48,479 nt of DNA from a bacterium (GCA_030648795.1 JAUSHC010000002.1:1-48479); one strand, 5' to 3'; positions 43,190-43,217 are shown, counted from the first letter of the stretch. The notes: generated by a model not told the origin, from the sequence alone. Numbers and translations: made by a program.

Positions 43190-43217
43190 AATCCCTAATC
43201 CCTAATCCCTAATCCCT
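43190..43217 (+). repeat. Four perfect tandem heptamers AATCCCT (28 nt) spanning the murD stop codon
   Basis: Read directly from the sequence. The TAA stop at 43210-43212 lies in the tract and the ftsW ATG is at 43223. Confidence 0.95.

Follow-up and report, generated by a model that had tools for sequence, protein, structure and literature searches.

The 48,479 nt analysed here, referred to as the window, make up contig C21 in an assembly of 92 contigs and 1.11 Mb (G000; 47% GC, 94% complete) and hold a cell-wall operon with murD, ftsW and murG as well as a pilin gene next to pilC, the gene names in the window being confirmed by Pfam. An initial annotation had drawn attention to four tracts of about 28 nt, each made up of four heptamers, and their positions were all borne out by TRF and by the ORF table of the window. 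The ORF table likewise places the murD and murG stop codons inside their respective tracts and two copies of CACAAGAA ahead of the ftsW stop codon (44324-44326), as had been stated. The features concerned are the following:

36272-37606, minus strand: pilin ORF, 444 aa, pilin-like (ORF table)
37573-37604, minus strand: pilin-leader array, sense CACGAWN x4, encoding the leader peptide MFHDTRSTIHEKG
37609-37679, minus strand: gene-less foldback in the pilC-pilin spacer, with inverted heptamer arrays of CGTGAAA-type and TTTCACN-type
42232-42249, plus strand: AACTTAC x2.6 array at the murD frameshift (TRF; comparison with contig L051)
42975-43002, plus strand: AGYTGTC x4, solitary in-frame array in the MurD C-terminal domain (…KKLAVSCQLSVV…)
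43190-43217, plus strand: AATCCCT x4, solitary array (TRF: 4.0 copies, 100%)
44306-44331, plus strand: left arm of a cassette, in 8-nt words (ACACAAGA x2, then ACATAAAA; TRF period 8)
44331-44702, plus strand: PF05635 (23S_rRNA_IVP / S23p) four-helix-bundle gene, cargo of the cassette (Pfam E = 9e-25)
44706-44731, plus strand: right cassette arm, ending in the murG ATG (44729)
45254-45289, minus strand: 36-nt GC-rich double-hairpin repeat, REP-like, inside murG (nhmmer E = 1e-9)
45770-45806, plus strand: TCTCAAT/TCCTAAT/TCATTAT solitary array of about five units, AATTCNT family

The AATCCCT tract encodes the C-terminal residues of MurD (…KSLIPNP), contains the murD stop codon (43210-43212) and ends 5 nt upstream of the ftsW ATG (43223), so that the MurD tail is about four residues longer; in the RNA fold it is single-stranded (z = 0.09, rounded 0.1). 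The complement of this tract on the minus strand, (AGGGATT)x4, matches the G3-N4 G-quadruplex pattern and is close to the telomere-like repeat ATTAGGG, and the AATCCCT unit forms a single array in the whole genome. At the end of murG, the array holds the stop codon (45794-45796), adjoins the ATG of a GT2 glycosyltransferase gene (45807), is unstructured in the RNA fold (z = 0.77, rounded 0.8) and is read by TRF as period 14 at 45769-45799 (x2.2, 100%). Period 14 is also reported for the tract within murD (x2.0 at 100%, with period 7 at x3.6), whose unit is the antisense form of the ACAACTK family; an origin of this internal tract as a loop insertion was considered and rejected, since relatives have a variable segment of equal length. 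In the pilin gene, the leader peptide precedes the FSLIEL N-methylation motif (Pfam N_methyl, residues 11-33) and TRF finds period 7 at 37575-37641 (x9.6, 68%); the tract does lie over the first codons of the gene, at codons ~3-11. Another segment of murD, GC-rich and ~39 nt long (43099-43137; GCCCGCCCGCCGAAGTCTGCATCGGGCAGACGAAGGAG), carries a GTCTGC/GCAGAC hairpin, gives the MurD C-terminal domain 13 extra residues (ARPPKSASGRRRR) and is missing in the same-genus genome and in all other aligned relatives.

The CACAAGAA tract, placed by TRF at 44305-44331 (period 8, x3.4), corresponds to the left arm of the cassette, which covers the ftsW stop codon and ends at the ATG of the PF05635 gene. Both arms form a 26-nt inverted repeat (88% complementary), and the cassette occupies the exact interval from the ftsW stop codon to the murG start (44729, taken from the gene call on L051), not a 23S rRNA helix. 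The product of its gene is bAvd-like, and its closest solved structure is the pentameric XCC0516 (PDB 2GSC, E = 8e-10), a toroidal homopentamer. The view that no annotated feature explains the tracts overlooks this PF05635 cassette, whose inverted arms are built likewise; between 36000 and 48479, no Rfam match was found at E <= 1.

Heptamer arrays across the genome

Throughout the genome, TRF returns 217 arrays of period 7, against 34 of period 6 and 52 of period 8, and perfect tracts of at least three copies number 24 at period 7 and 0-1 at periods 6 and 8-15, with 0.0 in Markov-3 simulations. In a lag scan with a threshold of 17/21 or more matches, where power is equal for all periods, lag 7 stood out with 100 loci, and its multiples 14 and 21 gave 49 and 11; at lags 8, 9 and 16 there were 11, 17 and 18 loci, lags 8 and 16 forming a small secondary class, and the remaining lags gave 0-5, with simulations at ~0. 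One contig (C37) is a near-perfect palindrome, ~10.5-20 kb being mirrored at ~23-32 kb, which double-counts repeats and is probably an assembly artefact; its second half was left out of later counts, leaving 93 strong loci. The length of the arrays is peaked at ~4 units (25-33 nt) with no decay, and perfect tracts, nearly none of which measure 21-25 nt, have a bimodal length distribution whose second mode is at 26-33 nt, so that the 4 x 7 geometry is real. Reading-frame arithmetic (one native unit plus three, adding 21 nt) was tried as the source of the four-unit mode and proved insufficient, since intergenic arrays share it; the arithmetic does fit some in-gene cases, such as a gain of 21 nt at C81 2918.

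Relatives were gathered by an FtsW search, which gave one genome of the same genus (G001, 89% aa identity), one of the same family and 38 of other families of the class. The repertoire of units in G000 is limited (AATTATG 10, AACTTAC 9, and others), with other families in G001; two hallmarks of heptanucleotide LSSR/STRR repeats are present, namely the over-representation of 7 nt and a few dominant families per genome that differ between the two. The initial annotation had read constant geometry with variable sequence as a sign of a common generating mechanism, and this is supported, in that the tracts are members of a single class, spread over the genome, with a sharp length mode of ~4 units, and the same sites in the congener carry arrays of equal geometry with other units.

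Genes were called by our own crude codon-usage caller (1077 genes, 87% coding). On these calls, 39 of the 93 strong arrays (42%) fall between genes or at a gene edge, where 16% would be expected (p = 2e-9), and 53 are assigned to the interior of genes, mostly in frame. A genome-wide scan of period 7 had been proposed as the refuting test, and the claim survives it, period 7 being commoner than other periods and enrichment at gene boundaries being present. The narrower link to cistron junctions is weaker than had been proposed: over half of the arrays are inside genes, and many relatives have no array at these junctions. Among the 28 arrays at co-directional junctions, 15 touch the upstream stop codon, 17 end at most 10 nt from the next start and nine do both, the array often being the entire spacer, and the start side is not favored over the stop side (12 vs 16).

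The orientation of in-gene arrays is near-uniform (AACTTAC 10/10, ACTACAA 7/7, AAGTCNA 9/10), which for AACTTAC and ACTACAA is explained by the array being read in three frames, as the complementary strands hold TAA or TAG. Beside start codons, the AATTC family displays an orientation bias of 11:1, or 12:1 once the array at 45781, next to the GT2 ATG, is counted, and its sense strand is ATG-free and G-poor in 12 of 13 start-adjacent arrays. Shine-Dalgarno motifs are found at 17% of starts against a background of 14%, and with so few of these sites, upstream ATGs and secondary structure would be costly. In the whole genome, position -1 is a T in 52% of genes. Around the arrays, no conserved flanks or insertion signature were found except for A-richness beside those of AACTTAC. 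All four tracts of the initial annotation lie where arbitrary sequence is tolerated: two of them in a C-terminal tail and the adjoining spacer, one in a variable protein segment and one in the leader peptide that is cleaved off.

PF05635 cassettes and foldbacks

Inverted arrays of tandem words flank all four PF05635 genes of G000 and two of the three in G001. The other three genes of G000 have arms of AATTCYT, CTACNNA and ACTAGTT words, which are also found as solitary arrays; in fact, the array at 45770-45806 belongs to the same unit family as the arms of the cassette in C46. In the cassettes of C46, C31 and C32 the words are of 7 nt, and in that of the window of 8 nt. Likewise, in six other families 19 of 20 PF05635 loci have inverted arrays, above all shuffles, with arms of 13-46 nt mostly composed of 7-nt words and some of 8-9-nt words. 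Altogether, inverted arrays flank PF05635 in 25 of the 27 cases examined, from eight genomes.

The distribution of arrays among relatives is patchy in samples of ~20 kb, from 12 per 20 kb (G013) to none in 23 of 41 genomes, the control periods being near zero in all of them. Across these 41 genomes, array density in the ~20-kb sample correlates with the number of PF05635 copies (Spearman rho 0.66, p = 3e-6, kinship ignored), with a partial correlation of r = 0.54 when the count of Y1 transposases and genome size are controlled for, and neither integrase count nor genome size is significantly related to density in the same set. Copies of Y1_Tnp (PF01797) also track array density (rho = 0.56; relatives G013, G014, G028 and others), and part of the PF05635 signal may be general repeat load. 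A Y1 (RAYT/IS200) transposase as the driver was rejected, r being 0.33 after control for PF05635 and PF01797 being absent from G000. One relative, G040, has nine PF05635 genes and no period-7 array in its ~20-kb sample; the cassette arms examined in it have no period-7 signal, one being of period 8 and one of 9-nt words.

For about one third of the arrays, an inverted partner lies no more than ~80 nt away, and such pairs fold as long hairpins (z = -4.1 and -4.9). A gene-less foldback of this kind lies in the pilC-pilin spacer, with inverted repeats at 37609-37630/37658-37679 and 37626-37641/37661-37676; in the RNA fold (z = -2.1) a spacer array pairs with the leader-codon array, enclosing the pilin AUG. 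For the other three tracts of the initial annotation no inverted partner was found within 600 nt, and for AACTTAC and AAGTCGA, the two largest in-gene families, the 94%-complete assembly holds no matching cassette or foldback. Neither a target-site duplication nor a conserved flank was detected around the elements. A gene encoding RNase III is present in G000.

Array turnover between relatives and the murD frameshift

Contig C11 of the congener is collinear with the window from 37.7 to 47.7 kb at ~80% nucleotide identity. All four array sites from murD to murG carry an array of ~4 heptamers in G001 too, the unit being different at three of them and related at the murG end. At the 5' array of murD, AACTTAC gives way to AAGTCAA (x5), AGYTGTC within murD to RWTTYAC (x4, 3 nt longer), AATCCCT to ACTTACT/GCTTAGT (x4) and TCYYAAT to TCATNAT (x3), and the orthologues of the three solitary tracts are solitary too. 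Many relatives, in turn, are without an array at the murD-murG junctions. Beyond C11, half of G001 was compared, and an array is found at the site in both genomes for 17 of 32 mappable G000 sites and 9-10 of 18 G001 sites, mostly with another unit, the remaining sites having the GC-rich hairpin repeat or nothing. Length differences between the two genomes are multiples of 3 nt at the compared coding sites, and non-multiples (14 nt, for example) occur at non-coding sites. At C28 7180 the arrays are equal in length and read AAGTCGA vs AAGTTGT, with parallel substitutions in every unit, which is concerted evolution. A co-evolution of unit families in trans, by which any one family of G000 would map to a single family of G001, was considered and discarded, as sites with AAGTCGA correspond to AAGTTGT, AATGCAG and GAATGAA in G001.

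The cassette between ftsW and murG is absent from G001, where the empty site (L031 7743-7790, against 44300-44735 of the window) reads CATAAAACCTGAAACATG. Since CATAAAAAC recurs in the two arms of the G000 cassette, in direct orientation in one and inverted in the other, these arms may have arisen in this single case as an inverted duplication of the native spacer. Between rplA and dcd, a cassette of G001 (C8) occupies the exact site of a gene-less foldback in G000, and the cassettes in C32 of G000 and C25 of G001 are orthologous, with different arm units. In the same collinear contig of G001 (L031, that is C11), an extra ORF of 270 aa (3867-4679) is found in a stretch of ~1.4 kb between mraY and murD, which are 57 nt apart here, and murD reads as a 651-aa ORF.

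A closer sequence, the independently assembled Logan contig L051, was retrieved by exact-protein look-up; it is 99.85% identical over 5.5 kb and may share the source sample of the MAG. The window's tracts at 42975, 43190, 44305 and 45770 are matched there without change, and no indel lies between 42975 and 45806. The frameshift in murD, however, which had been taken for a heptamer duplication, is where the two differ, the window being without 50 nt that are present in L051. In the latter, murD contains (AACTTAC)2, a 36-nt GC-rich double hairpin and (AACTTAC)2.7, and the frame is open; the 50 nt missing here comprise the 36-nt hairpin and two AACTTAC units, between two direct AACTTAC arrays. 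Such an array-to-array loss between contigs 99.85% identical indicates that the arrays are recombinogenic. The GC mini-hairpin family (CCGCC-N3-GGCGG…CCCCGCC-N3-GGCGGTGG) has 83 nhmmer hits, the copy at 45254-45289 being the best of them, and occurs in the window also at 38799-38822; five of its copies break into arrays of AACTTAC type, always at one position (…ACT[TG]A^…^CAACTT…). An origin of the arrays as stacked 7-bp target-site duplications of the 36-nt hairpin was discarded, as hairpins outside arrays are without duplication.

Interpretation and known relatives of the arrays

Heptamer repeats have been on record since 1990 and 2007 as a statistical oddity of bacterial genomes that lacks an explanation, and S23p-bearing IVS are, after more than 25 years, not known to have a function or an origin. 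In the reading that we favor, with moderate confidence, the tracts are paired or orphaned arms of IVS-like foldback elements which survive at permissive sites, and are not signals of cistron boundaries. The class would consist of short tandem arrays of 7-nt, sometimes 8-nt, words, ~4 units or 25-33 nt long, and would exist in three forms: a cassette, with two inverted arrays around a PF05635/S23p gene, which is the build of the 23S-rRNA IVS; a gene-less foldback, with two inverted arrays and a short loop, as in the pilC-pilin spacer; and a solitary array, as at the murD/ftsW and murG/GT2 junctions and within murD. Slipped-strand conversion within an array would homogenise its units, and copies would survive only where ~28 nt of arbitrary sequence are harmless, that is in spacers, C-terminal tails, the pilin leader and variable segments. 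The filter may be stated as the absence of stops in the sense strand, changes of length in multiples of 3 nt, and no ATG just before a start; the boundary enrichment is best read as survival at permissive sites because of this filter.

In RNA, paired arms would form stems of ~26-30 bp, candidate substrates of RNase III as in the IVS. They could also couple translation, the 5' arm overlapping the upstream stop and the 3' arm abutting the next start; both putative effects, RNase III cutting and translational coupling, are mechanistically plausible. As for the solitary arrays, we infer that they are orphan arms; those at junctions would be orphan 3' arms, acting only as unstructured, G-poor spacers. 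Going beyond this, PF05635/S23p might be the cognate factor of the heptamer arrays, one subunit binding each 7-nt word so that an array of 4-5 words would fit one ring, and gene and array would form a self-propagating pair comparable to RAYT/REPIN. We offer this only tentatively and regard it as unlikely. If true, the pairing would explain the heptamer excess of bacteria (cyanobacterial STRR, Xanthomonas, the Coxiella IVS, CPR), the fixed length of ~28 nt and the role of the IVS protein.

Alternatively, the arrays could be pure replication-slippage microsatellites, born locally from chance duplications and unrelated to the cassettes, heptamers being the unit size that slips most readily (an idea of Mrazek et al. 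2007, as cited in PMC4692102). The over-representation of heptamers in many bacteria (PMC4679880, PMC4692102), the change of units in concert within arrays, the copy-number or deletion variant at the murD 5' array of near-identical strains and the solitary state of over half of the arrays are all in agreement with slippage. Nevertheless, the same few unit families recur at many unlinked loci, and the fact that each genome has its own dominant families argues against an independent local origin of each array. Moreover, stepwise growth should lead to decaying lengths, whereas the perfect tracts show two modes with hardly any length of 21-25 nt between them, and slippage by single units would frameshift the many in-gene arrays. 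About one third of the arrays being in inverted pairs, and the presence of arrays beside PF05635 genes in 25/27 cases, further weaken this alternative, to which we give a low probability.

A somewhat lower probability is given to the arrays being dedicated cis signals at cistron boundaries, either heptads bound by protein, ~4 of them by an oligomeric protein with affinity for RNA or ssDNA (S1, Csp or an S23p pentamer), or unstructured leaders that replace the Shine-Dalgarno sequence and set the coupling. Such a role would suit the closeness of 17 of 28 co-directional junction arrays to the next start and the contact of 15 with the upstream stop, as well as the ~12:1 orientation of the AATTC family beside starts, the single-stranded junction tracts and a genome nearly devoid of Shine-Dalgarno signal. 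The congener keeps the position and not the sequence, and the TAACTGA repeats of Beggiatoaceae are similarly placed (PMC4679880). Yet half of the arrays are inside genes and far from boundaries, the orientation bias is explained by avoidance of stops and upstream ATGs, and neither a conserved sequence that a protein could recognise nor a bias of the start side over the stop side is seen at the junctions analysed; in addition, arrays are missing from the same junctions in most relatives, and even the two congeners disagree at about half of the sites.

Phase variation, in which changes of 7-nt copies would switch genes as contingency repeats do, is highly improbable. It would suit a unit length that 3 does not divide, a murD frame that is shifted at the AACTTAC array here and open in L051, and heptamer copies of the Coxiella IVS that differ between strains (PMC4990558). 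Against it, three of the four tracts of the initial annotation and the 8-mer tract (42975-45806) are identical in L051, only the murD 5' array differing, and two tracts straddle stop codons where copy number is unable to switch the gene. Between species, the length of in-gene arrays changes by multiples of 3 nt only, and murD, murG and ftsW have essential housekeeping roles and do not belong to the surface or contingency genes.

IVS-like foldback elements, as favored here, have a close counterpart in the S23p IVS. In the helix-45 IVS of Coxiella burnetii, the terminal stem measures 28 bp and the S23p ATG is preceded by 3+1 tandem heptamers; strains differ in the copy number of these repeats, at the first of which RNase III cuts (PMC4990558). 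Common to both are a PF05635 gene within terminal inverted repeats, a stem of ~26-28 bp, an arm of ~4 tandem heptamers before the ATG of the gene, a host gene for RNase III, and presence or absence of the element between close relatives. In contrast, the elements described here, whose excision by RNase III is putative, lie in protein-coding operons, from stop to start or in frame, and not in rRNA helices; most copies are gene-less or one-armed, and there are many unit families per genome.

The heptanucleotide SSRs of cyanobacteria (STRR), Xanthomonas and Nostoc (GGGAATC, GGGGAYT; Rehm et al. 2015, PMC4692102) share the period-7 excess and the four-unit mode, which the GGGAATC repeats of Xanthomonas display as here, together with enrichment between genes, some inverted pairs, and sites that are mostly common to related species and vary in length or sequence (PMC4692102). 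They differ in that the host here belongs to the Patescibacteria/CPR, the units are A/T-rich and not of G-quadruplex types (the complement of AATCCCT x4 does fit G3N4), and a large share is translated in frame. The TAACTGA repeats of marine Beggiatoaceae (MacGregor 2015, PMC4679880) are likewise 2-6 tandem heptamers a few nt before starts, in spacers without canonical ribosome-binding sites, with some copies in ORFs and a patchy phylogeny; unlike the present arrays, they have one dominant unit instead of many, and a foldback or cassette context is undescribed for them (PMC4679880). The descriptions of heptamer repeats in PMC4679880 and PMC4692102 make no link to PF05635 cassettes.

Heptamer repeats have been described before, as have S23p IVS elements, and no description of heptamer repeats in Patescibacteria was found in the literature searched; the elements here are of the IVS type and occur in operon junctions and coding sequences of a CPR bacterium, and their turnover is documented by comparison with a congener. 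Cassette, gene-less foldback and solitary arrays are found together within ~8 kb of an essential cell-wall operon, and the congener reveals the dynamics, with site and 4 x 7 geometry kept, the unit replaced in concert and cassette and foldback sharing a site. The questions of why seven and why four thereby become testable, through S23p binding, RNase III cutting and translational coupling where Shine-Dalgarno sites are scarce. For the annotation of CPR genomes, arrays are a cause of apparent frameshifts, as in murD, of C-terminal extensions and of odd protein segments.

REP/REPIN-RAYT and the Rickettsia palindromic elements are also small repeats found in intergenic spacers or in frame within genes, and a logic of gene plus repeat is plausible. 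The arms here are, however, tandem arrays of words instead of a fixed palindrome, and G000 has neither a Y1 transposase (PF01797) nor target-site duplications. A REP-like GC-rich family is separately present in this genome, in association with the arrays. A MITE-like element of ~120-130 nt was also observed, at C77 ~1497, C6 ~23664 and C10 ~4972; it has heptamer-array arms of CTAATTT/AAATTAG around a conserved core (…CCCAATGAC…) and supplies much of AAATTAG, the most abundant unit family in TRF.
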